Assembly: GCA_031260805.1 (NCBI GenBank)
Contig: JAISKV010000001.1
Coordinates: forward strand, 20,978-84,977
Source: Rickettsiales bacterium
GTDB lineage: Bacteria > Pseudomonadota > Alphaproteobacteria > Rs-D84
DNA: 64,000 nt
Reading direction: 5' to 3'
Both the position numbers and the translations under genes were made by a program. The notes beneath the pieces are model-generated. The model made no database searches. It saw only the letters and a program-made list of their open reading frames with translations, and had not been told where the DNA came from. Shown piece by piece: positions 1 through 64,000 of this stretch (its first letter is position 1; each line of letters starts with the position of its first letter).

Positions 1-5
1 CCCGC

Positions 6-800
6 CTACGCGGGAATGACGACGGGGGTGCTGGGGCGCTTCTCAAAAATCATTGTGAATCGAGCCAGGAAACTTTTTCCGCACAGATGCGACATGAATG
101 CCTTGGCCCGCCACACGAATTTCATGACCGACATCGCGCGGCCGCGTTCCAGATCGGCCAGGCATTTTGCGGCGACTGCGTCTGGATTCGCGCCGTGCGG
201 AACGCGCGCGCGCGCCCCGCAACTGGCCACCATGGAAAAATTAGTATCAACCGATCCGGGGCACAGCGCGATAGTTTTTATTCCGCGCGATTTTAACTCT
301 GCGCGGATGCCGACTGTGAAATCCAGCATGAATGCCTTGGACGCGGCATACGCCGCAAAGCCGCCCATTGGCGCGAATGCCGCCAGGCTGGCCACATTTA
401 TTATCCGCGACCCGCGGTCCATGTGCGGCAGCGCCGCGCCCAGTATGGCGACCGGCGCGACAACATTTATGTCCAGCATGTCCAGGACCATGCCCGGGTC
501 TTGGTCTGCAAAGTTTCCATAAACGCCAAAACCGGCATTATTGATCAAAGTATCAATGACGATGCGGTGGTTTGTTTTTTGCAATTTTGCGATTATTTCA
601 GAAATGACGCGCGCGCCGCCCCGTCCGCCCAAATCGGCGGAAATATTTGTTATTTTAACGGTCGCGGATTTTATTGATGATTTTGCGCGCGATATCAGAA
701 AGATTTCGTCAATCCCGGGCCGGTTGGCCAATGCGTTGGCAAAAGATTTTCCGATACCGGAACTGGCCCCGGTTATAATAATGATTTTGTAGGGTTTCAT
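6..800 (-). CDS. short-chain dehydrogenase/reductase (SDR) family oxidoreductase
   Basis: N-terminal TGASSGIG Rossmann motif, NNAG motif and YAASK (YxxxK) catalytic motif; 264 aa. Confidence 0.85.
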   Translation of the reverse strand: MKPYKIIIITGASSGIGKSFANALANRPGIDEIFLISRAKSSIKSATVKITNISADLGGRGGARVISEIIAKLQKTNHRIVIDTLINNAGFGVYGNFADQDPGMVLDMLDINVVAPVAILGAALPHMDRGSRIINVASLAAFAPMGGFAAYAASKAFMLDFTVGIRAELKSRGIKTIALCPGSVDTNFSMVASCGARARVPHGANPDAVAAKCLADLERGRAMSVMKFVWRAKAFMSHLCGKSFLARFTMIFEKRPSTPVVIPA

Positions 801-872
801 GATATAAAGATATCAAATTTACTTTATCAGGGCAAGTATGGAATTTTATTGCATGGTCCGCGGGGCGAAGAG

Positions 873-948
873 TGGTGGCCAGGGACGGAATCGAACCGCC
901 GACACAGGGATTTTCAGTCCCTTGCTCTACCAACTGAGCTACCTGGCC
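873..948 (-). tRNA. tRNA-Phe (anticodon GAA)
   Basis: Reverse complement reads GGCCAGGTAGCTCAGTTGGTAGAGCAAGGGACTGAAAATCCCTGTGTCGGCGGTTCGATTCCGTCCCTGGCCACCA. It has a cloverleaf, a CTGAAAA anticodon loop, a GTTCGATTC T-arm and an encoded CCA. Confidence 0.9.
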
Positions 949-1026
949 GAAAGTTTACTTATTATACATATGCCGGACATAAAATCAAGAAAAAACAATT
1001 CTTTTATGTTATAATCAGCAATATAA

Positions 1027-2977: not shown

Positions 2978-3317
2978 AGAACAGAATCGCGATATTTCAT
3001 AATTATATTGCAAAGCGGCGCGCAAGCGCTGTTTTTTTATCGCGCAATACTGTGTGCTGACTGTGTAAATACATGGTATATACAATGTATTTACAAGGTG
3101 TTGGCGTGGTGTTGCAGGACGAATCGGGGTCAAAAAAAATATAAATAAAATGATTGTTAAAAAATTTGGCAAAGACTTTTTTTTATTTAATCTGACCAGC
3201 AGAGAACGGGAAGAAAAATTAAGAAATAAGAATTAAGAATTTGGCTATGGCGGACAAATTATGACCGGGATGAAAAATAATTCTTAATTCTTATTTCTTA
3301 ATTTTTAATTCAGCAAG

Positions 3318-4595: not shown

Positions 4596-4622
4596 AAAAC
4601 GGCCGGCCGGCCGTTTTTTTTT
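4594..4622 (+). terminator. rho-independent terminator after dnaA
   Basis: A-run, GGCCGGCCGGCC palindromic stem, T-run immediately after stop. Confidence 0.7.
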
Positions 4623-4676
4623 AACGAGAAACGAACAACTAGCAGCGAGCAGCGATTGCCCCCCGTCGTCATTCCG

Positions 4677-4704
4677 AAAAAAAATCGCCCGCGGGCGATT
4701 TTTT
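4677..4704. terminator. bidirectional rho-independent terminator overlapping pgsA stop
   Basis: AAAAAAAATCGCCCGCGGGCGATTTTTT hairpin flanked by A and T runs. Confidence 0.65.
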
Positions 4705-5287: not shown

Positions 5288-5322
5288 AAGTTCTCCTTTT
5301 GCTTATGCCCCGATTATATCAA

Positions 5323-6717: not shown

Positions 6718-6778
6718 ACGGATTATGGTAATATAAAAAAGATAAAAATTAAAAGACAAAAGATAAAAAGGATTAAAA

Positions 6779-8180: not shown

Positions 8181-8201
8181 GTTATGAGTTGGAGTTAATA
8201 G

Positions 8202-10262: not shown

Positions 10263-10265
10263 AAA

Positions 10266-11087
10266 GTGAAAGGTAATAACATGGAAAAAATTATGAATAT
10301 GGTTTCTCATCCTGGATTTTATGTCGCAGTTGCAGAATTTGCAATTATCGGGATTTGCTTGTGGCTGTTTTACAAGCGCTTTATTCGGCACACCGCTTCG
10401 GAAAAACTGGTGCGGGGATTGCTGGGGCTGGCGGTATTGTGGGTGGCTAGTTTCGCACTCATGTATGTGGGTCTGGGGATATTGGGGGTATTTGCCCAGT
10501 ATGTCGCGATATTCTTGTCGGTCGGACTGGTGGTTATATTCCAGCCTGAATTGCGCAAATTTTTGGGCATGATGGGCCAGGTGAAGTTCTTGGCCGGCTT
10601 GTTTTCCAAAAAAGTGCTGGACAGCGCGGATAAAAAATCAAAACTGGAATCGGCCGCCGCCGAGATAATCAAGGCCGCGGAATACATGTCGGCCAAGCAT
10701 ATTGGCGCGCTGATTGTGTTCCAAGACGGCATGGACGGCGGCGTTAAGAACTATGGCACGATTGTGAACGCGGATATAACCAGCGAATTGCTGCTGACTA
10801 TATTTTTTCCAAAAACATCGTTGCATGACGGTGCGGTCGTTATCAGCAATATGCGGATTTATTCGGCTGGCGCGATATTGCCGCTGACAGAAAACCGGGA
10901 TCTGCACTGGCAATACGGCACGCGGCACCGGGCGGCGATCGGGCTGAGCGAAGTGTCCGACGCGACGGTCCTGGCGGTGAGTGAAGAAACCGGAAATATC
11001 AGCATCTCGCGCGGGGGGAAAATTTCCCATATTGAATCGGCCGCCAAATTAAAATCCAAAATAATCGCGGCCATGTCTAAGGTTTAA
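10266..11087 (+). CDS. cdaA: diadenylate cyclase (c-di-AMP synthase), CdaA/DacA type
   Basis: Three N-terminal TM helices. DAC domain motifs HDGAVVI (DGA) and GTRHRAAIGLSE (RHR). Confidence 0.8.
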   Translation: MKGNNMEKIMNMVSHPGFYVAVAEFAIIGICLWLFYKRFIRHTASEKLVRGLLGLAVLWVASFALMYVGLGILGVFAQYVAIFLSVGLVVIFQPELRKFLGMMGQVKFLAGLFSKKVLDSADKKSKLESAAAEIIKAAEYMSAKHIGALIVFQDGMDGGVKNYGTIVNADITSELLLTIFFPKTSLHDGAVVISNMRIYSAGAILPLTENRDLHWQYGTRHRAAIGLSEVSDATVLAVSEETGNISISRGGKISHIESAAKLKSKIIAAMSKV

Positions 11088-11285
11088 GGTTTGAGGTTTA
11101 AGGTTTAAGGTTTAAGGTTTGAGATTAGATGTTAATGATACCAAATATGATGTTTTGCCCATAGTTCTGCATATTTTAATGTATAGCATACTAGTATGCT
11201 ATACATTAATTTGACAATAAATTACATTAGCCACATAGACCTCAAACCTCAAACCTCAAACCTTAAACCTTAAACCTTAAACCTT
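11088..11285. repeat. long imperfect palindrome built from tandem GGTTTAAGG/GGTTTGAGG words
   Basis: 5' arm (GGTTTAAGG)n and 3' arm (CCTTAAACC/CCTCAAACC)n flank an AT-rich loop of about 110 nt. The first word overlaps the last codons and stop of cdaA. Confidence 0.85.
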
Positions 11286-11312
11286 GGATTGATGGCCCTG
11301 CCCATAAAGCCC

Positions 11313-12558: not shown

Positions 12559-12606
12559 CCAGCATCTTTGGTATTGTTTCTCCCAAAAATTCGCAGGGCG
12601 TGATAA

Positions 12607-13263: not shown

Positions 13264-13366
13264 AAAAGTGAAAAGTGGAAAGTGAAAAGTGGAAATGTGG
13301 CTAGTAGCGCGAAGCGCAACTGCAAAATTAAACTTTTTTCATTTTATTATCCCCCGTACCGAACTG

Positions 13367-13527
13367 CCGTCCATCGTCATCCCGCGCCCGGGCCCCGGAA
13401 AAATCGTAGATTTTTCCGGGTGGATATTGACGCAGGATCCAAGTAAAATAAAGCCCAATTTTGCCGTAGGCAAAATTGACAGCAATTACCTGGATTGCGG
13501 GTCGTAGCCCGCAATGACGATGGGAGG
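13367..13527. repeat. MITE-like element with CATCGTCAT(C/T)CCGCG ... CGCAATGACGATGG inverted-repeat termini
   Basis: Arms CCATCGTCATCCCGCGCCCGGGCCC and GGGTCGTAGCCCGCAATGACGATGGGAGG. Internal hairpins. Flanked by GTGAAAAGTG tandem words. Confidence 0.6.
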
Positions 13528-14015: not shown

Positions 14016-15337
14016 GGCAGTCTGGGGGACCAAGTGGGCAGCGTGCCGCTGACCCCGTTCGGCAGTTTGATTTCGTAATCGTTCATGCCGTTGATATCCA
14101 CGCTGCGGATATGACTGGACCAATCTTTGGCCGTATCCTTTTCAGTTTCGTAATAAACGACGCGGCGCGATCCGGGCGCCCAACTGGGATTTTCCATAAA
14201 CCAGCCGGATGCCAATATTTTCTCGTTCTTGCCGCGCGGATTCATGATTCCAATATAAAAGGTATCGCTGCTGATTTTCGTGAACGCGATAAAGTTCCCA
14301 TCGGGCGACCAGGCCGGCGTCGCGTATCTGCCGTTTCCAAAAGACAATCTTTTTATTTCGCCGGTCGCTATGTTCAGGGTATGGATTTGCTGGCTGCCGG
14401 ACCGGTTGGAATTAAACGCTATGGTTTTGCCATCCGGCGAGTACGAAGGGCTGGTGTCAATAACATCGCCGCTGGTCAATTGCGTCAAATTCTTGGTTTC
14501 CGTATTGAATTCGTACAGGTTGGTCGCGCCGTTTTGCGACAAAGACAGCGCGATTTTCACGCCGTCCGGCGAATAAGCCGGCGCAAATGTCATGCCGTTG
14601 AATTTGCCGAGTTTATGCTGGGTCCCGCTGTCCAGATCTAATGCCCACACCATCGGGTCGTCGTCGCGGTAAGACAGGAACACCACCGTCTGCATGTTTG
14701 GCGAGAATTTTGGCGACATGACCATGTCCGCGCCGTTTGATATGTATTTCAGATTGAATCCGTCGCTGTCCATGATGGCCAGTTTTTTTGTGCGGTTCGT
14801 CATCTCGCCCGTTTCGGTTATGAATATTATCTGGGTGTCAAAGTATCCGATTTCCCCGGTCAGCCGCTCGTACACGGCATCCGCCAGAATATGGGCTAAG
14901 CGTCGTGCGGACTTTTTTGATGAAACCAGATTCTGCGCTTCTATCTGTTCTTTGCCCGGAATGTCCCAGACAAAGAATTCCAGTTTGTATTTGCCATCCG
15001 CAACGGCGGTCATCTTGGTCTGGACCAAGACCTGGGCTTTGATTGCCGTCCAATCGGCAAATGACGGCAGTTTGTCCATTTTTACTTTTTCCGGAAACGC
15101 GTCCTTGTTTATCATCCGGAACAATCCTGTTGATTGCAGATCGTTCACGATGACTTCGCGCAGGGCGGTCGCTTCTTTGCGCAGGCTGGACTGGTCCAAC
15201 TCAAATTCCTGGACCGCGACAGGTATCGGTTCGGTGTTTCCGGCGATGATATCCAGTTTCAATTCCGCGGATGCGGGATTGAAAAGCAAGAATTGAAAAG
15301 CGAAAAGCGAAAACAGGGTTAGTAATATTTTTTTCAT
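14012..15337 (-). CDS. tolB: Tol-Pal system periplasmic protein TolB
   Basis: Signal peptide, TolB N-terminal domain and C-terminal beta-propeller repeats. Start trimmed to MKKILLTLF. Confidence 0.85.
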   Translation of the reverse strand: MKKILLTLFSLFAFQFLLFNPASAELKLDIIAGNTEPIPVAVQEFELDQSSLRKEATALREVIVNDLQSTGLFRMINKDAFPEKVKMDKLPSFADWTAIKAQVLVQTKMTAVADGKYKLEFFVWDIPGKEQIEAQNLVSSKKSARRLAHILADAVYERLTGEIGYFDTQIIFITETGEMTNRTKKLAIMDSDGFNLKYISNGADMVMSPKFSPNMQTVVFLSYRDDDPMVWALDLDSGTQHKLGKFNGMTFAPAYSPDGVKIALSLSQNGATNLYEFNTETKNLTQLTSGDVIDTSPSYSPDGKTIAFNSNRSGSQQIHTLNIATGEIKRLSFGNGRYATPAWSPDGNFIAFTKISSDTFYIGIMNPRGKNEKILASGWFMENPSWAPGSRRVVYYETEKDTAKDWSSHIRSVDINGMNDYEIKLPNGVSGTLPTWSPRLP

Positions 15338-16223: not shown

Positions 16224-19200
16224 ATGACAAAATCAAAAGCATTGTTTTCAATAATTGGAATGTTGTTGGCGCTGCCCGCATTCGCGGCCCCGTCGGTGCG
16301 CATGCTGCCGCGGACTGGAACTCCGCTGCCTGACGCGGTCAAAGATTCCGGCGACAGCAGCGATGCAACCGTGCAGATTCAAGACGAAACGGATTCGGCA
16401 TCGCGCCCCAGCGGCGGCTATGTTCTGGGCGGCGGCAGTTCTGTGGCCGCGGGCCGGGCATCTTCAACGCGCGCATCATCGTCGCGTGCCGCAACTTCGG
16501 GCCAGGCGCGTTTGTCCGTGGGCAAGTTCTTGAACAACGCCGTGGCGAAAAAGACGCCTGGCGCGGTTATAACAACACCGGGCGCCAGCACTGAAAATAT
16601 GCGCGATTACGCGACGAATGAAGACTTGGCGGATGTCGGCCAGTTGATCCAGGATGTTGATGATGATCTGCATGACAATTATTATGACAAGTCAAATGTT
16701 GACTCGCAAATGGATGGCAAGGCGGACAAGTTGTTAAGCGGCGCGGCCGGAAACTTGCTGGAACTTTCCGCGGATGGAAATTACCGCGATTCCGGCCAGA
16801 CGATATCCAGCATTGCAGCGAATACGGCGACCAAGGCGAATTTGCTGGTGTCCGGATTTACGGCGGGCAATATCGCGACGATTGCGGCGGATGGAAATTA
16901 TCAGGACAGCGGGATTGATCCGGCGACACTGGCAACCAAGACCTATGTTGATTCTGCAATTGGCGACGCGGGCAGCAATTTGTCAGACGCGGTTTCCAAT
17001 ATTACGACCAGCATCGCGACCAAGGCCGATTTGGTTATTGGCGCGGCCGAAGATAATTTTGCATCATTGACGGCGACCGGGAATTTGGCTGACAGCGGAT
17101 TTTCTGCGGACAGTTTTGCGGGCCGCACTGCGACAATTGACGCGTTGGCAGTCAAGGCCGACAAGGTTGCGGGCGCCACCGGTGGAAATTTTGCCGGTCT
17201 GGATGCAAACGGAAATCTGACTGATTCAGGTAAAAAAGCGGCTGATTTTGTCGCCAAGAACAAAACTGTTACGACTGGTAATTTCGCGGCGGTGAACGCG
17301 GCCAGCGGGGAATTTACAGACAGTGGGTTCAAGGCTGGCGATTTCGCGACAGCGGCGCAAGGGTTGCTGGCGGTCAATGCGATTCCGCGCGTTACAAATC
17401 CGACAGCCGGGCATATTGTGAAATTGGATGCCAGCGGCAATCTGGTTGACGGCGGTACTTTGGGTTCAATGGCCGGCAAGAGCGGTGTTACTTCCGAAGA
17501 CATCAATGACGGCACGATCATGAATGTGGACATTTCGCCGATTGCGCAGATTGCGCGCGAAAAATTGTCCGACGGGGTCCAGGATTCATTGGCTTTGGCG
17601 GATAATTCGGTCCAGAAATCCACAAACGGCGTTGTGCCTGTGGAAAACAATCTGGCAATGTACGATGCCAGCGGCAATTTGACCGATTCCGGTGAAAGCG
17701 TTGCGACGCTGAAAGATTACACGGATGTTGCGGTTTATAACGAAGAACAGGCGCGGATTGCGGATGTTGATGCCGAAGAAGCGGCGCGGATTCTGGCAAT
17801 ATCAAATGAAGCGGCGGCACGGACCGCGGCGGATACGGCGCTATCAAATGCATTGGCCCAGGAAATTTCAGACAGAATCGCGGATGTGAATGCCGAAGAA
17901 GCGGCGCGGATTCTGGCCGTGTCAAATGAAGCGGCAACGCGAAGCGCGGCGGATACGGCCCTATCAAATGCATTGACCCAAGAAATTTCAGACAGAACGG
18001 CGGCGATTGCGGCCGAAGCGGCGGCGCGTACCGCTGCGGACACAACACTGTCAAACGCGCTGGCCCAGGAAATTTCCGACAGAACGCTTGCGATTTCTAA
18101 TGAAGTATCGGCGCGAAGTGCGGCGGATACCGCGCTCTCGAACGCGCTGACCGCGGCGATTGCCCAGGAAGTGGTTGACAGAAACACTGCAATTCTGAAC
18201 GATGCAGTTCAGACGGTGGTGCTGGCATCTGGCACGGCCGAAGGCACATTGAAAATAACAGTTGATGGCGCGACCACGGATAATGTCTCGGTCAAGGATT
18301 GGGCGAAAGTCGCGCATAAAATGGAAACTTATCCGGCCGGCCATGCGGATGCGATCGTTATCCGCGACACAAACGGGGATGTTATTGCATCCGGCACCAA
18401 TCTGGCGGATATCGCGGACGCCATTGCAAATGCTGTCCAGAATGTCGCTTTTGCAACCGGGTCAACCGGCGGTTCGTTGAAAATCACAGTGAACGGCGTT
18501 GACAAGGAAGCGACTGTCAAGGATTGGGATACCAAGGCTGATAAAGTTATTTCGGCGACAAATAATAACTTTGCAGGATTGAATGCGGCCGGAAATCTGA
18601 CAGATTCTGGCAAGAATGCGACCAGTTTTATTGCGAATGCGGCCAGCGCGGTCTTGAACAGCCATATTGCGGACGATGCGGTCCAGACCGGCAAGATAAA
18701 AGACTTGAATATAACAACGAACAAATTGGCCGACAGCGCGGTTACCAGCATAAAAATCGCCGATGGAACAATTGCGACGGTTGATATTTCCGATGGCGCT
18801 ATTACATTACCGAAGATAAACGCGACCGCGTACGATACTGCGGTTACATCCGCGTCTGCAAAACTGATTACCAGTGGCGGCGTGTACACTGCAATTCAGG
18901 ACAGCGCGGTTCAGACGGCGGTTTTGGCATCCGGAACAAATTCCGGCACGATGAAACTAACCGTGGATGGCGTCGCGACGGACAATGTCGCTGTTACCGG
19001 ATGGGGGACCAAGGCGGACAAGGCCGTGCCGACAACCGCGAACAATATCGCGATATTGGATTCAATCGGGAATTACAAGGACAGCGGGACTTCGCTGGCG
19101 GATATCGCTGCGTCTATCGCGACTGCGATTAACAGCACGCTGGACAGCGGAAATGTTTCAATAACAACAGGAACCAGCAACGGATATGTCAAACTGACAG

Positions 19201-20195
19201 TCAACGGAACTCCGCAAGAGGCCGAGGTCAAGGGGATAAACACAGCGGCATACCAGCCGTCCAGCGCGTTTATCGCGAATGCAGCGAATGCGGTCTTGAA
19301 CAGCCATATCAATGCAGCCGCGGTTGATTCTGCCAAGTTGGCGACCGATTCGGTTATAACGGCCAAGATTATGAACGCAGCGGTGACGGTGGATAAAATG
19401 GCGGCCAGTTCCGTCGGATCCGCGCAGATTATTGACGGTTCAATTGCTACTGCGGATCTGGGCGCGGGCGTTGTTACTAATGCGAAACTGGCGGCGAATT
19501 CGGTTGCTTCGTCCAATATCATTGATGGATCGGTTGACGAAGTTGACTTGGCTGCGAACAGCGTGACCAGCGCGAAGATAGCGAACGGCAACATAACATT
19601 TGCAAAAATGGCGACCGGCGCGGTTGATGCGACGCTGACCGCGGCATCTGACAAGTTGCCGACATCAGCGGCGGTTTCCAATGCATTGACTGCGGCGGTT
19701 TCCGCGGCGGTCAGCTCGACGACATACTCTGCCGGAAATGGAATTGACATAACATCCAATGTTATCAAGGCGATTGCGGACGCGACGGGCGGACTGTCTG
19801 TGGCGGCTGCCGGGATGAAAATCGCGGACAGCGGCGTTACGACGGCGCGGATAAATAATGCTGCGGTGACGGCTGACAAACTGGCGGCGGATTCAGTCAT
19901 AACGAACAAATTGGCCGACAGCGCGGTTACCAGCATAAAAATCGCCGATGGAACAATTGCGACGGTTGATATTTCCGATGGCGCTATTACCAGTGCAAAA
20001 ATACTGGATGGAACGATTGCGGCGGCTGATTTGGGTCCGAACAGCGTTATAACCGCAAAAATCGCCGACAGCAATGTTACCAAGGTTAAATTGGAAACTT
20101 CGGTCCAAACGACATTGGATTGGGTTGGAACAATACCTGTGGGCGCGCCGGGCGGAACCCCGTCGGCGGGACGCGCATTCATCTGGATAGAATAA
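16224..20195 (+). CDS. giant secreted fibre/adhesin-like protein with phage-tail-fibre-like repeats
   Basis: 1323 aa with a signal peptide. Ala/Ser-rich region. About 35-aa repeats ending in (D/T)DSG. Four coiled-coil units AAARTAADTALSNALAQEISDR. Many 11-residue xxAVTxxKIADG repeats. Confidence 0.6.
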   Translation: MTKSKALFSIIGMLLALPAFAAPSVRMLPRTGTPLPDAVKDSGDSSDATVQIQDETDSASRPSGGYVLGGGSSVAAGRASSTRASSSRAATSGQARLSVGKFLNNAVAKKTPGAVITTPGASTENMRDYATNEDLADVGQLIQDVDDDLHDNYYDKSNVDSQMDGKADKLLSGAAGNLLELSADGNYRDSGQTISSIAANTATKANLLVSGFTAGNIATIAADGNYQDSGIDPATLATKTYVDSAIGDAGSNLSDAVSNITTSIATKADLVIGAAEDNFASLTATGNLADSGFSADSFAGRTATIDALAVKADKVAGATGGNFAGLDANGNLTDSGKKAADFVAKNKTVTTGNFAAVNAASGEFTDSGFKAGDFATAAQGLLAVNAIPRVTNPTAGHIVKLDASGNLVDGGTLGSMAGKSGVTSEDINDGTIMNVDISPIAQIAREKLSDGVQDSLALADNSVQKSTNGVVPVENNLAMYDASGNLTDSGESVATLKDYTDVAVYNEEQARIADVDAEEAARILAISNEAAARTAADTALSNALAQEISDRIADVNAEEAARILAVSNEAATRSAADTALSNALTQEISDRTAAIAAEAAARTAADTTLSNALAQEISDRTLAISNEVSARSAADTALSNALTAAIAQEVVDRNTAILNDAVQTVVLASGTAEGTLKITVDGATTDNVSVKDWAKVAHKMETYPAGHADAIVIRDTNGDVIASGTNLADIADAIANAVQNVAFATGSTGGSLKITVNGVDKEATVKDWDTKADKVISATNNNFAGLNAAGNLTDSGKNATSFIANAASAVLNSHIADDAVQTGKIKDLNITTNKLADSAVTSIKIADGTIATVDISDGAITLPKINATAYDTAVTSASAKLITSGGVYTAIQDSAVQTAVLASGTNSGTMKLTVDGVATDNVAVTGWGTKADKAVPTTANNIAILDSIGNYKDSGTSLADIAASIATAINSTLDSGNVSITTGTSNGYVKLTVNGTPQEAEVKGINTAAYQPSSAFIANAANAVLNSHINAAAVDSAKLATDSVITAKIMNAAVTVDKMAASSVGSAQIIDGSIATADLGAGVVTNAKLAANSVASSNIIDGSVDEVDLAANSVTSAKIANGNITFAKMATGAVDATLTAASDKLPTSAAVSNALTAAVSAAVSSTTYSAGNGIDITSNVIKAIADATGGLSVAAAGMKIADSGVTTARINNAAVTADKLAADSVITNKLADSAVTSIKIADGTIATVDISDGAITSAKILDGTIAAADLGPNSVITAKIADSNVTKVKLETSVQTTLDWVGTIPVGAPGGTPSAGRAFIWIE

Positions 20196-20220: not shown

Positions 20221-20256
20221 AGTTTTCAGAGTTCAGAGTGCAGAGTTCAGTTTTTG

Positions 20257-20322
20257 CCACTACCCCGTCGCGCTGCGCGCGCCACCCCTTCGCTGGCGAA
20301 TGGGCGGCGGCGGGGTAGTGGT
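20257..20322. repeat. GC-rich palindromic element CCACTACCCCGTCGCGCTGCGCGCGCCACCCCTTCGCTGG ... CGGGGTAGTGG
   Basis: Same motif recurs at 60117-60313; flanked by CAGAGTTCAG and AACTAATAACTAATA tandem words. Confidence 0.75.
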
Positions 20323-20357
20323 ATAACAACTAATAACTAATAACTAATAATTCATAA

Positions 20358-23519: not shown

Positions 23520-25343
23520 ATGATGGAACGCATAAGAAATTTTTCAATAATCGCGCACATTGACCATGGCAAGTCCACCTTGTCCGACCGCTTGATTGAA
23601 TATTGCGGCGGCCTGGAATCGCGCGAGATGAAGGCCCAAGTCCTGGACAGCATGGATATAGAGCGGGAGCGCGGGATTACTATCAAGGCCCAGACGGTGC
23701 GGCTGACATACAAGGCGCGCGATGGGCAGACTTACCAACTGAATTTAATGGACACGCCGGGACATGTGGACTTTGCATATGAAGTGTCGCGCAGTCTGGC
23801 CGCGTGCGAAGGCGCGGTGCTGCTGGTGGATGCGACCCAGGGGGTCCAGGCCCAGACGCTGGCCAACGCATATTTGGCGATTGACAATGACTTGGAAATT
23901 CTGCCGGTGCTGAACAAGATTGATTTGCCTTCGTCCGATGTTGAAATGACGAAGCGGCAGATTGCGGATGTCGTCGGGCTGCCGGCGGACGATGCGCAAA
24001 GCGTGTCCGGCAAGACCGGGGCGGGCATTCCTGAATTGTTGGAAACAATCGTCGGCCGGCTGCCGTCGCCGAATGGAAATCCGAATGCGGCCGCGCGCGC
24101 ATTGCTGGTGGATTCGTGGTACGATTCGTATTTGGGCGTCGTGTGCCTGGTGCGCGTGGTTGACGGGAAGTTAACGCGCGGGCAAAAGATTAAATTCATT
24201 GCGACCGGCGCGGAATACGAAATTGATAAAATCGGATACTTTACGCCGAAAATGGTGAATACGGAAAGTCTGGAATGCGGCGAAATCGGCTTTGTCATAA
24301 CCGGCATGAAAACGATTCGCGATTGCAAAGTCGGCGACACGATAACCGGCAGCGATCAGCGGGCGGCGGACAGCGAGCCTTTGCCAGGATTCAAGCCGTC
24401 TGTGCCTGTGGTGTTTTCTTCATTCTTTCCGGTGGAAGCGGACGATTACCCGACGCTGCGCGACAGTGCGGAAAAGTTGGCGCTGAACGATTCGTCTTTT
24501 GTGTTCCAGGTGGAAAAGTCGTCCGCATTGGGGTTTGGGCTGCGCTGCGGATTTCTGGGCCTGCTGCATATGGAGATTATAAGCGAGCGATTGAGCCGCG
24601 AATTTAACTTGAATCTGATAAACACGATTCCAAGCGTGCTGTACAAGATTCATCGCAGATCTGGCGGGGGCGCAAAAGCTGCCGACATGGAAGACGGGAT
24701 CATAAATCTTGAAAATCCTGCGGATATGCCGCCGCCTGAACAGATTGATTTTATTGAAGAGCCTTGGGTGCGCGCGACCATCATGCTGCCAGACCAGTAT
24801 CTGGGCGGAATCATGTCGCTGTGCGTGGAACGGCGCGGAATTCAGGAAAACATGTCTTATGTTGGCAATCGGGTGGTTCTGGTTTACCGGCTGCCGCTGG
24901 CCGAGATTGTTTTTGATTTTTACGACCGGGTCAAATCATTGACATCCGGCTATGCCAGTTTCGAGTATCATCTGGACGGATACGAATCGTCCGATCTGGT
25001 CAAGGTATCTGTGCTGGTAAACGAAGAAGTGGTAGAGCCTTTGTCGTTCCTGTGCCATCGGTCGTTCGCGGAAAAGCGCGGCCGCCAGATTGTGGAAAAG
25101 TTGAAAGACCTTATCCCGCGGCATCAGTTCAAGATTCCAATCCAGGCGGCCATCGGCGGCAAAATCATCGCGCGCGAAACAATTGCGGCGTACCGCAAGG
25201 ATGTTACGGCAAAATGCTATGGCGGGGACATTTCTCGCAAGCGGAAATTATTGGAAAAGCAAAAGGAAGGTAAAAAACGGATGCGGTCGTTCGGGAATGT
25301 TGAAATCCCGCAAACGGCATTTATCAACGCATTGAAGGTTTGA
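23520..25343 (+). CDS. lepA: elongation factor 4 (LepA)
   Basis: GTPase G1 [21 protein letters not shown]; LepA-specific C-terminal domain; start trimmed to MMERIRNF. Confidence 0.9.
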
Positions 25344-25414
25344 GGTTTAAGATTTAAGGTTTGAGGTTTCGGCCTAATTACCTTAAACCTTAAATCTCAA
25401 ACCTCAAACCTTAA
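25337..25414. repeat. palindromic hairpin of GGTTTGAGG/GGTTTAAGA words (same word family as 11088-11285)
   Basis: GGTTTGAGGTTTAAGATTTAAGGTTTGAGGTTT-loop-reverse complement; first word provides the final codons KV-stop of lepA. Confidence 0.8.
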
Positions 25415-25417
25415 AAT

Positions 25418-28141: not shown

Positions 28142-29170
28142 ATGAAAAAAGTAAAAAAACAACATGGGTCATCCCGGCGAAAGCCGGGATTTAAGTCTAT
28201 TAAGAAAAATAGATTCCGGGTCAAGCCCGGAATGACACTGTTTTTAATTATTTTCACTTTTTTCACTATTTTCACTCTTTTCACTATTTTCATTTCTTCC
28301 CCGATTAAACAAAAGACCGAATTCACGATTTCGCGCGGGGCGGGGGTTGCGTCCGTGGCCGTCGGGTTGCAGGCGAACGATTTGGTTTATTCCAAGACGC
28401 TGTTCCGCGCGTCCGTCGCGCTGTTCGGCGGCCGGGTCCAGGCCGGTGTTTATGATTTGCCGCGCGGGGCGTCTGTCTGGAAACTGGCGCGCAAATTCGC
28501 GCGCGGCGACATCGCGGCCACGACTATAACCGTGCCCGAAGGCCTGACCGTCCGTCAGATTGAAAATCTGCTTAATGTCAGCGGCGCCGCCTGCAAGTTA
28601 AAGTTCGGCGAAGGAGATTTGTTTCCGAACACTTATACGATTGCGCGCGGCGCGTCAAATTGCATGATAATTTCGCTGATGATGGATAAAATGACGGCGG
28701 TCAAGCGCGGCTGGGAAAATTCAGGCCGGCATCTGCCCGCGCCGCTGAAAGACTGGAACGAAATCATAACGCTGGCGTCCATCGTTCAGAAGGAAACGCC
28801 GCGCGTGGCCGAAATGCCGATTGTCGCATCCGTGTACATGAACCGTTTAAGAAAACGAATGCGGTTGCAGGCGGACCCGACAGTTGTTTATGCGATAACC
28901 AACCGGTTGGGCGATATGCAGGGCAAACCGTTGTTAAGATCTGATTTGATAGAAAAAAGCCCGTATAATACTTATATGAATTACGGGCTGCCGGTCGGCC
29001 CTATTGCGAATGTCGGCGCGGATGCGATTGCGGCGGTGCTGAATCCGGCGGATACGAATTATTTGTACTTTGTCGCGGACGGCACCGGCGGGCATAAGTT
29101 TTCAGATACTTATCAGCAGCATCAGGCGAATCATCAGGCTTGGCGGGAGATAAAGAAAGGTAAAAGGTGA
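28142..29170 (+). CDS. mltG: endolytic murein transglycosylase MltG (YceG family)
   Basis: YceG-like domain. The N-terminal hydrophobic segment IIFTFFTIFTLFTIFISS is encoded by TTTTCACT-type tandem words. Confidence 0.7.
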   Translation: MKKVKKQHGSSRRKPGFKSIKKNRFRVKPGMTLFLIIFTFFTIFTLFTIFISSPIKQKTEFTISRGAGVASVAVGLQANDLVYSKTLFRASVALFGGRVQAGVYDLPRGASVWKLARKFARGDIAATTITVPEGLTVRQIENLLNVSGAACKLKFGEGDLFPNTYTIARGASNCMIISLMMDKMTAVKRGWENSGRHLPAPLKDWNEIITLASIVQKETPRVAEMPIVASVYMNRLRKRMRLQADPTVVYAITNRLGDMQGKPLLRSDLIEKSPYNTYMNYGLPVGPIANVGADAIAAVLNPADTNYLYFVADGTGGHKFSDTYQQHQANHQAWREIKKGKR

Positions 29171-30108: not shown

Positions 30109-30138
30109 AAAAAAAACGGGCCCCGGCCCGTTTTTTTT
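30107..30138 (+). terminator. rho-independent terminator
   Basis: AAAAAAAAACGGGCCCCGGCCCGTTTTTTTT. Confidence 0.75.
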
Positions 30139-30216
30139 GTGAAGGTGTAGGTGGAGGTGAAGGTGAATGTGCGGGAATGACGATATCTCAACCTACACCT
30201 ACACTTTCACATACAC
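30139..30216. repeat. palindromic hairpin of GGTGAAGGTGTAGGTGGAGGTG words
   Basis: Arms GTGAAGGTGTAGGTGGAGGTGAAGGTGAATGTG and CAACCTACACCTACACTTTCACATACACC. Loop contains GCGGGAATGACGA (dRS3-like word). Confidence 0.8.
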
Positions 30217-30246
30217 CAAAAAAATGCGGCTTTGCCGCATTTTTTC

Positions 30247-31509: not shown

Positions 31510-31685
31510 TTTCCGCGCTGCGCGCGAAAATTAATGAATAATGAACAATGAATAGTTGTTCAGCAAGCAAAAGGTGAAGAAAGAATAAAAAATAATAAAT
31601 AATATTGCTGCGAGCAAAGCGAGCACAAACATTATTCATTATTCACTATTCATTATTCACTATTTGCGAACAAAGAGAGCAAATT
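31510..31685. repeat. ~175-nt intergenic repeat family B, copy 1 (rpsG-fusA spacer)
   Basis: Terminator-like GC hairpin, then arm AATGAATAATGAACAATGAATA. Then a core of about 75 nt, followed by arm CATTATTCATTATTCACTATTCATTATTCACTATTT. Near-identical copy at 42994-43177. Confidence 0.85.
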
Positions 31686-33767: not shown

Positions 33768-33852
33768 AACAATTAAAAATTAATAATTAAGAATTATAAA
33801 TTGGAACACAGTTATTAATTCTTAATTCATTTACTACGAAGGAGTAAATAAA

Positions 33853-35040: not shown

Positions 35041-35068
35041 TTTGGCGCAGCCAAATTATTTGATAGAT

Positions 35069-35130
35069 ATGAAACATGAGACACGAGACATGAATAATCA
35101 TGTTTCATATCTCATGTCTCGTATCTCAAA
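35069..35130. repeat. palindromic hairpin of ATGAAACATGAGACACGAGACATGA words
   Basis: Arm ATGAAACATGAGACACGAGACATGA / loop / TCATGTTTCATATCTCATGTCTCGTATCTCA. Preceded by a small terminator-like hairpin TTTGGCGCAGCCAAATT after tuf. Confidence 0.8.
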
Positions 35131-35469: not shown

Positions 35470-35470
35470 A

Positions 35471-35551
35471 GGTGTAAGTGTATGTGCGGGTGTAAGTTGA
35501 TTTTGCTTACAATTTCACCTGCACATACACCTGCACCTGCACAAAAAGGTA
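35471..35551. repeat. palindromic hairpin of GGTGTAAGTGTATGTGCGGGTGTAAG words
   Basis: Arms GGTGTAAGTGTATGTGCGGGTGTAAGTTG and CAATTTCACCTGCACATACACCTGCACCTGCAC between rpsJ and rplC. Confidence 0.8.
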
Positions 35552-39068: not shown

Positions 39069-39069
39069 T

Positions 39070-39120
39070 TTTCAGAGTTCAGAATTCAGTATTTTGACTG
39101 AACTCTGAAAACTGAAAACT
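39070..39120. repeat. palindromic hairpin of CAGAGTTCAGAATTCAG words
   Basis: TTTTCAGAGTTCAGAATTCAGTATTTTGACTGAACTCTGAAAACTGAAAAC. Same word family at about 20228-20252, 52795-52820 and 60482-60522. Confidence 0.8.
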
Positions 39121-39146
39121 ATTTGCGACGATAGGAGCAAACAAGT

Positions 39147-40979: not shown

Positions 40980-41354
40980 ATGATACAGAATGAAACAATT
41001 ATGAAAGTGGCGGACAACAGCGGGGCCAAGCGCGCGCAGTGCATCAAGGTGCTGGGCGGGTCTCATCGCCGCTATGCTACGCTGGGCGACAAGATTGTCG
41101 TCGCGATAAAAGACGCTATTCCCAATGGCAAGGTTCAGAAGGGAACCGTTCAGCGCGCGATTATCGTTCGCACAAAGTTCGCGACGAAACGCAGCGACGG
41201 CAGCGTGATCCGCTTTGACGACAACGCGGTCGTGCTGATTAACAAGAATAATTTTGAACCGATCGGGACCCGCATTTTCGGACCTGTCGCGCGCGAAGTT
41301 CGCCGCAAGTACGATGTTCAGAAAATTGTGTCCCTGGCACCGGAAGTTATATAA
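40980..41354 (+). CDS. rplN: 50S ribosomal protein L14
   Basis: [17 protein letters not shown]...[11 protein letters not shown] conserved L14. Confidence 0.97.
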
Positions 41355-41391
41355 AAGTGAAAAGTAAAAAGTGAAATTAAGGCGGGTTGAT

Positions 41392-42572: not shown

Positions 42573-42596
42573 AATTTGCGGCGCAAATTTTATCAA

Positions 42597-42686
42597 GATA
42601 AAAGATAAAAATGAAAAGATAAAAATTATTGCAGAAATTATTATCTTTTATCTCTTAATTTTTATCTTAAACGAACGAAGTGAGTG
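42597..42686. repeat. intergenic repeat family A, copy 4 (rplE-rpsN spacer)
   Basis: Near-identical to copies 1-2; preceded by terminator-like AAAATTTGCGGCGCAAATTTT; 3' module ends 4 nt before rpsN ATG. Confidence 0.9.
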
Positions 42687-42993: not shown

Positions 42994-43177
42994 TTTTTGC
43001 GCCGCGCGCAAAAATTAATGAATAATTAAAAATGAACAATGAATAATTGTTCAGCAAGCAAAAGGTGAAGAAAGAATAAAAAATAATAAATAATATTGCT
43101 GCGAGCAAAGCGAGCCAAACATTATTCATTATTCACTATTCATTATTCACTATTTGCGACTGCAAGGAGCAAATGAA
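42994..43177. repeat. intergenic repeat family B, copy 2 (rpsN-rpsH spacer)
   Basis: Near-identical to 31510-31685, including internal GTTCAGCAAGCAAAAGGTGAAGAAAGAATAAAAAATAATAAATAATATTGCTGCGAGCAAAGCGAGC core. Confidence 0.85.
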
Positions 43178-44835: not shown

Positions 44836-44908
44836 CAGTTATTAGTTATTAATTATTATACTTTTGCGCGCAATGATGTAATAATTAATAACTGATAATT
44901 TATAACTA
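44836..44908. repeat. palindromic hairpin of CAGTTATTAGTTATTAATTATTA words
   Basis: Arms CAGTTATTAGTTATTAATTATTATAC and GTAATAATTAATAACTGATAATTTATAACTA. Preceded by small hairpin AATTTCCGCGCCGCGGAAATT after rplR. Confidence 0.8.
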
Positions 44909-44930
44909 AAAAATACGGAGTATTTTTATA

Positions 44931-46380: not shown

Positions 46381-46444
46381 TAGAATGAATGTAAGACTTT
46401 ATGGTGTTTGCATGCAAACACCATAAAGTCTTGCATTTCATATT

Positions 46445-48209: not shown

Positions 48210-48257
48210 TTTTGGATTCACAAATCATGAATCGCAAATCATAAATAGGAAAAATAA

Positions 48258-48644: not shown

Positions 48645-48754
48645 ATTCCCCTTCGCCGGGACCCACCCGCGAAAGGGGTGGCAGCGGCGTAGCCGCTGAC
48701 AGGGTGGTGGTTAATTTTGATGAAAATAATAAACTAAATCAAAAGGTTAAGCGA

Positions 48755-49786
48755 ATGATAGAAAAAAATTGGATGACATTGATCAAACCGAAAAAACTGA
48801 CTGTCAGGGCGGACGACGGCAATCCTAATATCGCGGTTTTGACGGCCGAGCCGCTGGAACGCGGATTCGGCATCACGCTTGGCACTGCATTGCGCCGCAT
48901 TCTGCTGTCTTCATTGCAGGGCTGCGCGCCGACGCATATCAAGATAGACGGCGTCCAGCATGAGTTTCAATCAGCGCCCGGAATCCGCGAAGATATTGTT
49001 GATATTATTCTGAATCTGAAAGGCGTGTACTTTCGCGCAAATACCGAAGGCACGCACAAGGCGCATCTGAAAGTCAAAGGCCCGGCGGTTGTCACATCCG
49101 GCATGATTGAAACCAGTTCGGCCGTTGATGTGTTGAACAAGGATGTTGAAATCTGTAATCTGGGGGACGGGGCGTCATTGGATATGGAAATCACGCTGGG
49201 AACAGGCCGCGGATATGTATCCGCTGATATTAATCGCGGTGAAAATACTCCATTGGGCACAATTCCGGTTGACTCAATTTATTCGCCGATATTGAATGCC
49301 GCATCTGTTGTAACGCCGGCGCGCGTCGGCCAGTCAACAGACTATGACAAACTGGAATTGACCGTTAAAACAAACGGCGCAATTTCACCAGAAGACGCGA
49401 TTGCGCTGGCCGCCAGAATTCTGACGGATCAATTGAATCTGTTTATTAATTTCGAGGATCCGACGCTCTCGGTGCTGCCGGAAGATGAAGAAAAAGAAAA
49501 AGAAGTCTTGCCGTTTGATCCGAAATTGTTAAAGCATGTTGATGAATTGGAATTGTCGGTCCGCGCGAATAATTGCTTGAAGAATGACCATATTAACTGG
49601 CTGGGCGAATTGGTCCAGAAAACGGAATCCGATATGCTGAAAACGCCTAACTTTGGACGGAAATCTCTAAACGAGATAAAGGCGCAGCTGGAAGCGATGG
49701 GATTCGGGCTGGGGATGGAAGTTCCAGGCTGGCCGCCAGAAAACATCTCGCAATTGGCAAAAAAGTACGAAAATCCGTATAAATAA
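48755..49786 (+). CDS. rpoA: DNA-directed RNA polymerase alpha subunit
   Basis: N-terminal dimerisation domain and C-terminal domain (ELSVRANNCLKN); start trimmed to MIEKNW. Confidence 0.95.
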   Translation: MIEKNWMTLIKPKKLTVRADDGNPNIAVLTAEPLERGFGITLGTALRRILLSSLQGCAPTHIKIDGVQHEFQSAPGIREDIVDIILNLKGVYFRANTEGTHKAHLKVKGPAVVTSGMIETSSAVDVLNKDVEICNLGDGASLDMEITLGTGRGYVSADINRGENTPLGTIPVDSIYSPILNAASVVTPARVGQSTDYDKLELTVKTNGAISPEDAIALAARILTDQLNLFINFEDPTLSVLPEDEEKEKEVLPFDPKLLKHVDELELSVRANNCLKNDHINWLGELVQKTESDMLKTPNFGRKSLNEIKAQLEAMGFGLGMEVPGWPPENISQLAKKYENPYK

Positions 49787-49877
49787 TTTATGATTAATAA
49801 TTTATGATTTCTGATTTAATTCAGGTCGTAAATAATGTTTAATCCCCGCGGGGGCTGAAACCAAAAAGGAAAATGCA

Positions 49878-51113: not shown

Positions 51114-51143
51114 AAAAAATGCGCCGTAGGCGCATTTTTTTTA
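51113..51143 (+). terminator. rho-independent terminator after skp
   Basis: AAAAAAAATGCGCCGTAGGCGCATTTTTTTT. Confidence 0.75.
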
Positions 51144-51171
51144 GGTTTTAGGTTTAAGGTGAGAAGTATAA

Positions 51172-60081: not shown

Positions 60082-60116
60082 ATAGTAGTTAGTTGGAATT
60101 CAGGGTGCAGTTTATT

Positions 60117-60313
60117 ACCACTACCCCGTCGCGCTGCGCGCGCCACCCCTTCCCGGGCCCCGCGAAAAACAAAGTTTTTCGTGGGTGGATCCCAGCGAAG
60201 GGGATTTTGATGGCCTGCATCACATAATAAAATGATATTTATTGAAACGAAGTCGGGATAATCCCCTTCGCTGGCGAAGGGGTGGCGCGCGCAGCGCGAC
60301 GGGGTAGTGGTAG
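60117..60313. repeat. long palindromic element with CCACTACCCCGTCGCGCTGCGCGCGCCACCCCTTC arms (same family as 20257-20322)
   Basis: Left arm 60117-60165, right arm about 60262-60313, about 100-nt loop. Followed by an AATTAAGAA-word palindrome (about 60310-60420). Confidence 0.75.
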
Positions 60314-60425
60314 AATTATGAATTAAGAAAGAAGAATTAAGAATTATAAAATTATGTCTGACACTCTGTTTATTATAGCAGACAACGATAATTCTTATTT
60401 CTTAATTGTTAATTCTTAATTAAAT

Positions 60426-60487
60426 CCTGTAAACCACCCCGGCCTGCGGCCACCCCTCCAAAGGAGGGGAACTGGCCCCGCAACTAA
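60426..60487. repeat. copy of CCTGTAAACCACCCC...GGGGAACTGGCC arm (family of 51172-51497)
   Basis: CCTGTAAACCACCCCGGCCTGCGGCCACCCCTCCAAAGGAGGGGAACTGGCC, followed by CAGAGTTCAG-type words. Confidence 0.7.
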
Positions 60488-60590
60488 ACTCTGAACTCTG
60501 AACCCCGAACTCTGAAAACTAGTAATTTTTCCCTTTTATTAAATTGCCAAAGTATGTTAAAATGCAAGAGATTAATTCAAGAGAGAATCT

Positions 60591-63299: not shown

Positions 63300-63341
63300 T
63301 GAATAGCGAGCAGAGAAAGACAAATAGAGAATGATATTTTT

Positions 63342-63665
63342 ATGAAAAAATATATAGAAAATATTACGATAGGCGAGTTTTTGATAACAGAGTTTTTAGA
63401 ACCGCTGGGACTTTCGCAGAATGCCCTGGCCAGGGCTATTAATGTTCCGCAAAACCGCATAAACGAGATTGCGAATGGCAAGCGCGGTATTACGGCTGAT
63501 ACAGATTTGCGTTTGTGCAGATATTTTAATATGAGCGATGGATTCTTTTTAAGGGTTCAGACAAAAATAGATCAAGATATCGCAAGGCAAAAACTGGAAA
63601 ACGAGTTGAATCAAATAATTCCGTATGCAAATGACAATGGGCATCGGGATTTGATAGCGATGTAG
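63342..63665 (+). CDS. higA: HigA-family antitoxin-like XRE helix-turn-helix protein
   Basis: EFLEPLGLSQNALARAINVPQNRINEIANGKRGITADTDLRLCRYF matches the HigA/VapI HTH core. Confidence 0.75.
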   Translation: MKKYIENITIGEFLITEFLEPLGLSQNALARAINVPQNRINEIANGKRGITADTDLRLCRYFNMSDGFFLRVQTKIDQDIARQKLENELNQIIPYANDNGHRDLIAM

Positions 63666-63681
63666 AATAACTGAAAATATA

Positions 63682-64000
63682 AATGAAAAAATTTTATTAT
63701 TTATTCTTTATTCTTTTTTCTTTCGCGATGCCGGCGGCGTTGCATGCCGCATGCTCGTCCCTGAATCTGCAAACCTGCCTGGACAGCGCGTGCAACCTGA
63801 ACAGCATGGATCATGGCGAGCGGTGCAATCTGTGCGGCGGCGGATCGGGAAATTCTTCGCGCGAATCAACCGGATTGCAATCGCTGTCGCTGGGCGCGTC
63901 AAAATACGCGCTGACCGACAAAGAATTGAAAAATGCGCCGACCGGCAACGCGGGCCAGCGGTACATCTGGGCGACGGATCAATGCTTGAAAAAAGTTGTA
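63682..64000 (+). CDS. secreted cysteine-rich protein, paralog of 60591-63299 (5' part; runs off window)
   Basis: Signal peptide MKKFYYLFFILFSFAMPAALHA. CSSLNLQTCLDSACNLNSMDHGERCNLC shares the C-x7-C-xDS-xC-x9-RC-xC pattern with the upstream paralog. Confidence 0.5.

Follow-up and report, generated by a model that had tools for sequence, protein, structure and literature searches.

Tandem heptamer repeats were first described in cyanobacteria around 1990. The classic units of these so-called STRR elements (short, tandemly repeated and repetitive) are G/C-rich, such as CCCCAGT, several word families occur in a genome, and the units are said, after work by Vioque in 1997, to lengthen a helix of RNase P RNA. 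The present study concerns repeat hairpins of this general kind in the intergenic DNA of a 64-kb stretch (the window: positions 20,978 to 84,977 of contig JAISKV010000001.1, assembly GCA_031260805.1) from the metagenome-assembled genome (MAG) of an uncultured, gut-type alphaproteobacterium. In filamentous cyanobacteria, STRR units are usually 7 bp long and form hairpin loops, for example at hupS-hupL, and transcript stability or translational coupling have been proposed as their roles (PMC2670836). Xanthomonas genomes each carry 70-75 convergent inverted pairs of GGGAATC arrays (Rehm et al., 2015, PMC4692102); the length of these arrays varies between related species, while their type, single or inverted pair, is kept (PMC4692102). 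In Beggiatoaceae, Cyanobacteria and Bacteroidetes, TAACTGA and mixed heptamers occupy intergenic DNA, ribosomal-protein operons included (MacGregor, 2015, PMC4679880), the corresponding spacers of relatives are shorter and repeat-free, and indels come in 7-nt steps (PMC4679880). As quoted in that article, the long simple-sequence repeats of most prokaryotic genomes are more often heptanucleotides than anything else, and a suggested cause is that the polymerase slips over a 7-nt contact (Mrazek et al., 2007, via PMC4679880); the cold-shock protein literature that it reviews has one protein bound per heptamer, with T-rich strands preferred (PMC4679880).

Our detector found 38 period-7 arrays in the 64 kb, against 0-4 arrays for each other period from 4 to 12, and Tandem Repeats Finder returned about 60 rows with a period of 7 or 14. 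Non-coding DNA makes up 12% of the window and holds 34 of the 38 arrays. In the intergenic segments 33 arrays were observed, whereas 200 dinucleotide-preserving shuffles of the same segments gave a mean of 0.065 and a maximum of 2, placing the words well beyond what composition predicts within the window. A preliminary description of this DNA had reported hairpins of degenerate 6-9-nt tandem words in nearly every intergenic gap. All of its named word families are present, each recurring at separate loci, and the heptamers include AAGGTTT, AATTAAG, AAAAGTG, TTCAGAG, AGATAAA, AGTTATT, TAATGAA, CATGAGA and ATTTATG. The tandem words stand, but the size range contracts to 7 nt nearly always, since hexamer units occur in just two hairpins (30138-30218 and 35470-35542) and the sole 9-nt array lies inside a gene. 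"Nearly every" gap likewise becomes a majority, with arrays in about 27 of the roughly 45 gaps of at least 40 nt (about 60%) and in 16 of the 21 junctions of the elongation-factor/ribosomal-protein cluster. Array density is 5.9 per 10 kb across the window and 9.5 per 10 kb in the ribosomal region. With head-to-tail 7-nt units beyond chance length, a dispersed and mainly intergenic location, and length changes by whole units, the arrays are heptameric simple-sequence repeats.

The arrays occur as inverted pairs, and the six loci first given as examples all fold, as had been described, into imperfect palindromes of tandem words, with an arm, a loop and a complementary arm. At co-directional junctions the order is nearly constant: stop codon, arm 1, a loop of 4-120 nt private to each locus, arm 2, a ribosome-binding stretch and the start codon. 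The stop codon and arm 1 are separated by 0-3 nt, or by a short GC hairpin or terminator with A and T runs beside it, while arm 2 ends 2-33 nt, typically 15-30 nt, ahead of the next start codon, an interval that contains the ribosome-binding site. Placement directly after stop codons, another early claim, holds at 17 co-directional junctions, where arm 1 contains the stop, begins 0-3 nt later or follows a GC hairpin or terminator abutting the stop. At 11085, 25341, 39846 and 40843 the stop codon lies within arm 1 and in phase with its units, so that the last residues of the protein are encoded by the array. Hairpins with 7-bp repeats on both arms occupy at least 13 junctions of the fusA-tuf-S10-spc-alpha cluster, whose conserved operon order suggests co-transcription. 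Behind strong terminators (20225, 30138, 51139, 52449, 52795 and 54738) the array starts right after the T-run, and larger gaps (51135-51520 and 60092-60516) are nested, their outer heptamer arms enclosing both GC-rich palindromic repeats and further heptamer hairpins.

Predicted stems measure 12-48 bp, with folding energies of -13 to -92 kcal/mol and z scores of -2.6 to -10.2, and for 11 of 12 elements none of 200 dinucleotide-preserving shuffles folds as well. The stems are 53-92% A+T, with the exception of one short hairpin (59142-59181, 36% A+T). A stem-loop directly after a stop codon resembles a Rho-independent terminator, but such terminators have a short GC-rich stem and a U-tract, whereas the window stems are AT-rich, 25-48 bp long and set within an essential operon; the word hairpins show no consistent U-tract, and a real terminator often adjoins them. 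The hairpins are therefore not ordinary Rho-independent terminators, and the separate canonical terminators that the preliminary description had placed beside them are indeed seen. Between 33 and 52.5 kb, terminator-like sites are not enriched (36 vs. 31.2 expected), nor are promoters in the operon. At gathering score, the only Rfam match in the 64 kb is one tRNA, and the hairpins match no known RNA family. Mismatches between arms are mostly transitions, with 30 G.U and 37 A.C on the sense strand; this lack of a G.U excess gives no sign of selection preserving RNA pairing.

A second regularity concerns strand composition. The 5' arms of 21 hairpins contain 128 G and 16 C in 623 nt and the 3' arms 136 C and 25 G in 638 nt, and without exception (21 of 21) G exceeds C in arm 1 and C exceeds G in arm 2. 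The 3' arms are rich in T and C and poor in G. First arms contain 34 start triplets and second arms 5, and 17 of the 21 first arms hold stop codons in at least two frames. Because a hairpin reads alike on both strands, the G-first rule is a handedness and not an orientation relative to genes.

The SecY sequences of other organisms closest to that of the window are 79-83% identical and come from uncultured Alphaproteobacteria of gut and rumen, several of which bear the name Candidatus Enterousia; the G+C content is 50.6% in the window vs. 36-48% in the closest relatives. No period-7 array was found in 274.5 kb of these relatives (18 loci, mostly the same operon), and other Alphaproteobacteria have 0.076 arrays per 10 kb (66 loci, 1.19 Mb). 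In the nearest relative (L081) most operon spacers are shorter than 25 nt, and the junctions that are expanded in the window, mostly to 78-184 nt (61 nt at S8-L6 and 37 nt at L14-L24), measure 1-21 nt. The arrays are therefore lineage-specific gains for which empty sites exist, in agreement with the lineage specificity initially suspected.

An origin by recombination, also suggested at the outset, is partly borne out by cassettes repeated at separate junctions. Cassette g, of the AGATAAA family, occurs four times (L23-L2, S19-L22, S3-L16 and L5-S14) with a core that is 95-100% identical, and the identity reaches into the flanking mini hairpin and ribosome-binding module. Cassette h, of about 165 nt, occurs twice (S7-fusA and S14-S8), and the two copies match almost fully over the element apart from one additional 7-nt unit, an indel that also indicates slippage. 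Perfect 14-nt double units, a further sign of slippage, are present at 13265, 31633, 37282 and 49782. Intercistronic regions seem to be assemblies of interchangeable modules. None of the four g copies has a visible target-site duplication, and loci that share words have otherwise unrelated loops. One ribosome-binding module, ACGAACGAAGTGAGT, stands 5-6 nt ahead of the ATG of L2, L22, S14 and L6 (37347-37376, 38604-38633, 42665-42694 and 43614-43643), and its L6 copy follows an array of a different word.

The arrays are not confined to spacers. Stop codons inside arms at 11085, 25341 and 39846 mark C-termini that arrays have invaded. Within one Peptidase_S11 protein (carboxypeptidase), 4.4 copies of TTTTCAC (54934-54964) encode the hydrophobic core of the signal peptide, and four copies each of AGTGAAA and ATCACGA (55726-55798) lie in frame in a linker. 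Units of 9 nt, TATTTTCAC (28236-28292), encode the N-terminal membrane helix of YceG/MltG, and GAAAAGC units (15295-15313) fall in the TolB N-terminus. In sense orientation, T-rich and G-poor arrays yield Phe/Leu/Ser-rich peptides and so may be co-opted as signal or membrane segments. With C-termini invaded and a signal peptide, a transmembrane helix and a linker hit, the arrays behave like a mutational process.

Although the preliminary description knew of no repeat class with this architecture, heptamer hairpins, inverted pairs and mixed arrays have each been described (PMC2670836, PMC4692102, PMC4679880), and the STRR, Xanthomonas and Beggiatoaceae-type precedents together make the architecture a known one. 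As in cyanobacterial STRR sequences, tandem 7-bp units lie in intergenic or intercistronic DNA and form both arms of a stem-loop between genes; in contrast to those, the host belongs to another phylum, the words are AT-rich, pairing into hairpins is the rule and not occasional, and the elements are tied to stop codons and terminators. With an alphaproteobacterial host and AT-rich words different from the STRR1-3 units, the window elements are not STRR sequences in the strict sense. They share with the Xanthomonas GGGAATC arrays an intergenic location, heptamer units, convergent inverted pairs and a G-strand-first handedness, the G side coming first in 21 of 21 window hairpins, but Xanthomonas uses one G-rich, quadruplex-capable word in a genome of 65% G+C, whereas the window has many AT-rich words that are incapable of quadruplex formation. 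The heptamers described by MacGregor similarly form intergenic arrays, some of them inside ribosomal operons, with 7-nt indels and several heptamers mixed per spacer; those are direct repeats (one indirect among 170 sets) without systematic hairpins, mostly just upstream of start codons and with one word dominant.

Palindromic repeat families are a more distant comparison. Repetitive extragenic palindromic (REP) sequences and their mosaic assemblies (BIME), Correia, ERIC and Rickettsia palindromic elements each have a family consensus and no internal tandem heptamers; REP copies all share a conserved imperfect palindrome of 20-40 nt, and REPs are tied to RAYT transposases. The window hairpins resemble them as multi-copy intergenic palindromes that are presumably co-transcribed with flanking genes, lie near gene ends and at times in coding sequence, and are absent at the corresponding sites of relatives. 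They differ in that loops are private to loci and words differ between families; there is no consensus across families, and no RAYT gene, other transposase gene or insertion sequence is encoded within the 64-kb window. Nor do they answer to MITEs, small transposable elements with inverted repeats at their ends that match an insertion sequence, as the g copies have no flanking duplications and the 64 kb contain no insertion sequence. The feature is real and lineage specific; its class, that of heptameric STRR-like repeat hairpins, has been described though not explained, and to it this window adds the host class, an AT-rich vocabulary, the density in a ribosomal-protein operon and an explicit handedness rule.

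We scanned metagenome contigs for three AAGGTTT-type units and obtained at least 120 matches. Many of the densest-array contigs among the matches listed carry degenerate TTTAGGG-type arrays, presumably eukaryotic telomeres, and were excluded; heptamer censuses of metagenomes must remove such arrays (e.g., L086, L093, L104, L142 and L189). The remaining contigs among the matches listed include bacterial ones with several heptamer words each, of which L097 is from Bacteroidales by its GroEL and L152 encodes a T9SS sorting domain, and none is related to the window lineage. Five scans of viral contigs for window words returned 4-71 contigs per scan. Where complementary arrays lie no more than 400 nt apart, the G-containing array comes first in 12 of 13 metagenome contigs (among the matches listed) and, for two sets of viral contigs, in 8 of 9 and 13 of 14, or 33 of 36 in total with the same scope for the metagenome part (one-sided binomial probability about 1e-7). 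In co-directional gaps over all loci, by counts that rest on crude gene calls, G-type arrays are nearer the stop codon in 52 cases vs. 24, and C-type arrays nearer the start codon in 40 vs. 29. A Bacteroidales contig with both AATTAAG and AAGGTTT arrays raised the idea of a vocabulary shared between phyla, which was rejected; among the matches listed, AAGAATT occurs in 2 of 116 AAGGTTT-selected contigs and AAACCTT in 0 of 62 AATTAAG-selected ones.

The groES-groEL spacer of Bacteroidales offers an orthologous series. In five lineages from termite gut and other sources (GroEL 95-97% identical) this spacer always contains heptamer arrays, and the words are entirely different. Those of L097 (GTTTAAA and CCTTAAA) and L212 (AGAAGTT and AACTTGT) can pair, whereas those of L205 (AATTAAG, TAATCAC and TTAAATT), L207 (AATTACG) and L208 (AGTGACA and CATTAAA) cannot. 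In all five a G-type array comes first and G-free arrays follow up to the start codon. A lineage at 89% GroEL identity has a plain 52-nt groES-groEL spacer and, upstream of groES, a TGTTAAT array (L209-L211:992-1041) of 7 units in one sample and 4 in two, a difference of exactly 21 nt or 3 units between flanks that are almost identical among the three samples, which likewise speaks for slippage by whole units.

We favor the reading, at a probability of roughly 0.55, that the elements are STRR-type heptanucleotide repeats which, in one alphaproteobacterial lineage, have turned palindromic and have spread across the intergenic DNA. It starts from what is plain in the data: the 7-nt periodicity, whole-unit changes, cassette duplication, recent gain in the lineage, predicted pairing, handedness and stop/start geometry. 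Replication slippage would gain and lose whole 7-nt units and 14-nt double units, a step that is partly documented here; the complementary arm may arise by inverted duplication or fold-back copying, and whole cassettes, with mini GC hairpin, two arms and ribosome-binding module, would be copied between spacers by recombination or gene conversion. A filter would then leave a single surviving handedness, in which the arm that contains G and little C lies 5' and the one poor in G lies 3'. In that arrangement the first arm would give stop codons to the gene end that it abuts or invades, the second would keep ATG, GTG, TTG and Shine-Dalgarno-like G-runs largely away from the next gene, and C-rich, G-poor RNA would never lie unpaired for Rho loading. 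Pairing of the arms in the polycistronic mRNA would loop out the insertion of 60-210 nt, keeping a distance of 15-30 nt between the stop codon and the following ribosome-binding site and leaving the operon functional, which would explain the tolerance of palindromic insertions between coupled cistrons. The stem-loop is probably also a 3' exonuclease barrier or an RNase III target, roles that stems of 25-48 bp would suit. The elements are regarded as mostly tolerated by-products, not designed regulators.

Several observations weigh against this account. The handedness persists behind canonical terminators (30138, 51135 and 52795), where translational and Rho filters would be weak, so it may mark the generating mechanism instead. 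Slippage leaves the 7-nt unit length unaccounted for, and when the arms of one hairpin were compared with arms at other loci the sequences were too low in complexity to discriminate. Transcription, processing and neutrality of the hairpins would be read from the sequence of one genome. Finally, the persistence of groES-groEL arrays despite word turnover could mean that arrays are held by selection.

This last point leads to the alternative that fares best, namely that the hairpins are selected RNA elements setting the fate of individual cistrons as RNase III sites, REP-like 3'-end stabilizers or translation-coupling switches. Such functions are the ones proposed for cyanobacterial 7-bp repeat hairpins, and they would suit the very regular placement (stop codon at the stem foot, ribosome-binding site just past the stem), the long and stable stems, the presence of elements at 16 of the 21 junctions of the gene cluster with the highest expression, and the five Bacteroidales lineages in which groES-groEL arrays persist through full turnover of their words. 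We nevertheless consider this possible but unlikely: the closest relatives do without the elements, spacers of 1-21 nt sufficing; the arms show no bias of G.U over A.C; arrays are unable to pair in three of the five Bacteroidales spacers; strong terminators precede many elements, which little RNA would then include; and arrays spill over into coding sequence.

The 7-nt period and the handedness are common to the alphaproteobacterium, to Bacteroidales of the gut, to many viral contigs and, according to published work, to Xanthomonas. It is conceivable, though we think it rather doubtful, that the two together are the signature of one specific process that writes and maintains arrays, and not of generic slippage, with hairpin-bridged ribosomal junctions replacing tight coupling. 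A polymerase or a fold-back copying step that advances in 7-nt quanta would be one candidate for the process, and a protein with a 7-nt footprint another.

Mobilization in trans, by a transposase encoded elsewhere, of miniature transposable elements (MITE-, REP- or BIME-like) whose terminal repeats are the words would account for the near-identical copies at separate sites (g four times, h twice), the empty sites in relatives, the nesting at 51135-51520 and 60092-60516, and the presence of two other palindromic repeat families in the same gaps. It appears improbable given that the four g copies lack target-site duplications, that no terminal sequence is common to the families, that loci sharing words differ completely in their loops and that the 64 kb encode no transposase. 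Moreover, copy identity extends to the ribosome-binding module next to the gene, a pattern that recombination explains more readily than transposition does, and a period-7 interior with unit-sized indels is foreign to known MITEs.

Quite improbable, in our judgment, is the protein-binding array that the preliminary description had also proposed, here pictured as serial sites for a protein whose footprint is 7 nt, for instance a cold-shock-domain protein that melts or locks the hairpin from its pyrimidine-rich arm. A strict 7-nt period that is otherwise unexplained, 3' arms that are T/C-rich and G-poor, and cold-shock proteins that bind one per heptamer with a T-rich preference, as reviewed in PMC4679880, all speak for such a protein; at least 10 unrelated words in one genome, and different words at orthologous Bacteroidales spacers, argue against a sequence-specific binder, and arm pairing would conceal the single strand. 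The window encodes no obvious partner. An assembly, adaptor or chimera artefact can practically be dismissed, for although this MAG is represented by one contig record and such arrays sometimes stand at contig ends in other assemblies, a sequencing read is longer than any arm, each arm has unique sequence and intact, syntenic genes around it, the arrays fit together with stop codons and ribosome-binding sites, and like arrays recur in many independent assemblies from different projects, two samples having identical spacers and a third differing cleanly by 21 nt.

The window provides a clean case, with a dense and recent gain, array-free relatives at about 80% protein identity and the best-understood bacterial operon. 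It demonstrates that insertions of 60-210 nt between translationally coupled ribosomal-protein genes are tolerated and, if the elements are neutral, it would be an example of palindromy making junk harmless. The handedness rule is simple and holds across unrelated hosts and viruses, so that this case opens to experiment a long-standing question, namely what produces heptamer repeats and what constrains them. The elements of the window are listed in Table 1.

Table 1. Heptamer and hexamer elements of the window (positions counted from its first nucleotide; folding energy dG in kcal/mol).
Element	Position	Strand	Remarks
AATTAAG-family hairpin	3214..3306	.	perfect 28-bp stem, loop 37 nt; 11 nt upstream of dnaA start; dG -34.8, z -7.2
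AAGGTTT-family hairpin	11076..11288	.	arms 48 nt; arm 1 contains stop of upstream DAC-domain gene; second palindrome of 15 bp in loop; dG -92.5
AAAAGTG array	13264..13345	+	from stop codon; perfect 14-nt double unit, weak partner arm
TTCAGAG and AGTTATT arrays	20225..20350	.	TTCAGAG at 20225-20250, after terminator; AGTTATT at 20324-20350, sense on minus strand, after rbfA stop; non-complementary, GC-rich palindrome between
AAGGTTT-family hairpin	25332..25415	.	arms 36 nt, loop 12 nt; lepA stop codon inside arm 1; arm 2 ends 2 nt ahead of next start; dG -46, z -10.2
Hexamer hairpin GTGAAG / CCTACA	30138..30218	.	between two canonical terminators; z -6.2
Cassette h1, S7-fusA	31510..31670	+	mini GC hairpin, TAATGAA arm, loop, CATTATT arm
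AATTAAA/AATTAAG hairpin, fusA-tuf	33771..33827	.	z -5.8
CATGAGA-family hairpin, tuf-S10	35066..35127	.	mini GC hairpin first; z -6.4
Hexamer hairpin GTGTAA / CACCTG, S10-L3	35470..35542	.	begins at stop codon; z -7.7
Cassette g1, L23-L2	37278..37350	.	AGATAAA family
Cassette g2, S19-L22	38512..38607	+	with mini GC hairpin
TTCAGAG-family hairpin, L22-S3	39069..39121	.	z -5.5
Cassette g3, S3-L16	39833..39918	.	arm 1 contains S3 stop codon
AATTAAG-family hairpin, S17-L14	40843..40974	.	stop codon in phase with first unit; z -4.2
Single AAAAGTG array	41353..41376	+	fills L14-L24 spacer
Cassette g4, L5-S14	42573..42668	+	98-100% identity to g2
Cassette h2, S14-S8	42994..43160	+	nearly identical to h1, one 7-nt unit inserted
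Single AATTAAG array, S8-L6	43583..43614	+	
AGTTATT-family hairpin, L18-S5	44837..44909	.	mini GC hairpin first; z -6.2
Weak TCACAAA/TCATAAA array, S13-S11	48218..48246	+	
ATTTATG array	49782..49818	+	overlaps rpoA stop codon; perfect 14-nt double unit
TTTTAGG / CAAACCT outer arms	51135..51520	.	after terminator; enclose GC-rich palindromic repeats (arms 74 nt, 82% complementary)
GAGGTTTAAGG array and TTCAGAG-type inverted pair	52449..52985	.	GAGGTTTAAGG array at 52449-52480, after terminator; inverted pair at 52795-52822 and 52948-52975, each arm adjoining own-strand terminator
AGTTATT/AATTGTT array	54738..54769	+	directly after pyruvate kinase terminator
AGGTGTG / CACACCT hairpin	59142..59181	.	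short, degenerate; between convergent genes
Nested element	60092..60516	.	degenerate outer arms TTCAGGG / CTCTGAA, GC-rich palindromic repeats inside; inner AATTAAG hairpin at 60314-60421, z -4.7
ATAAATGAAAAT units, then TTTATTC array	63667..63723	+	after last gene

The window consists of housekeeping genes, nearly all on the plus strand, among them dprA, dnaA, uvrC, dnaN, tolB, lepA, fabF, mltG and the genes for pyruvate kinase and a D-Ala-D-Ala carboxypeptidase, together with the ribosomal-protein cluster fusA-tuf-S10-spc-alpha. No DnaA-box cluster was found near dnaA or near arrays. Two further palindromic families share the intergenic DNA with the heptamer elements. The first is GC-rich, with the core CCACCCCT(T/C)C, and has 9 hits vs. 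4.3 expected, a number that 0 of 100 shuffles reach. Its sites (20252-20322, 48645-48700, 51166-51230, 51439-51512, 60116-60152, 60276-60312 and 60421-60480) frequently have heptamer arms on both sides, the gap from S11 to rpoA has one copy, and the family looks REP-like. The second, CGTCATTCC...GGAATGACG, clusters in intergenic DNA at 4667, 13375-13519, 28165-28237, 30174, 51362, 52552-52698 and 52864-52893; its arm pair 52576-52614 / 52666-52704 is 95% complementary over 39 nt, and a fragment of it occupies the loop of the hexamer hairpin at 30138-30218.

The open reading frame (ORF) at 16224-20195 encodes 1323 aa without a Pfam match and contains tandem repeats of 120 nt and 87 nt (17760-18152) as well as an exact 90-nt duplicate (18716-18805 and 19901-19990); its product is probably a repetitive surface protein. 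The spc operon has two additional small ORFs, of 91 aa between L24 and L5 (41712-41987) and of 65 aa between L6 and L18 (44201-44398), at junctions where the nearest relative has spacers of merely 47 nt and 138 nt, respectively. The long gap that precedes the ORF at 51646 contains 14 consecutive C (about 51596-51609), a homopolymer that could be phase-variable. Just upstream of secY, at 46385-46440, lies a near-perfect 26-bp palindrome without heptamer structure (dG -35, z about -11.6).

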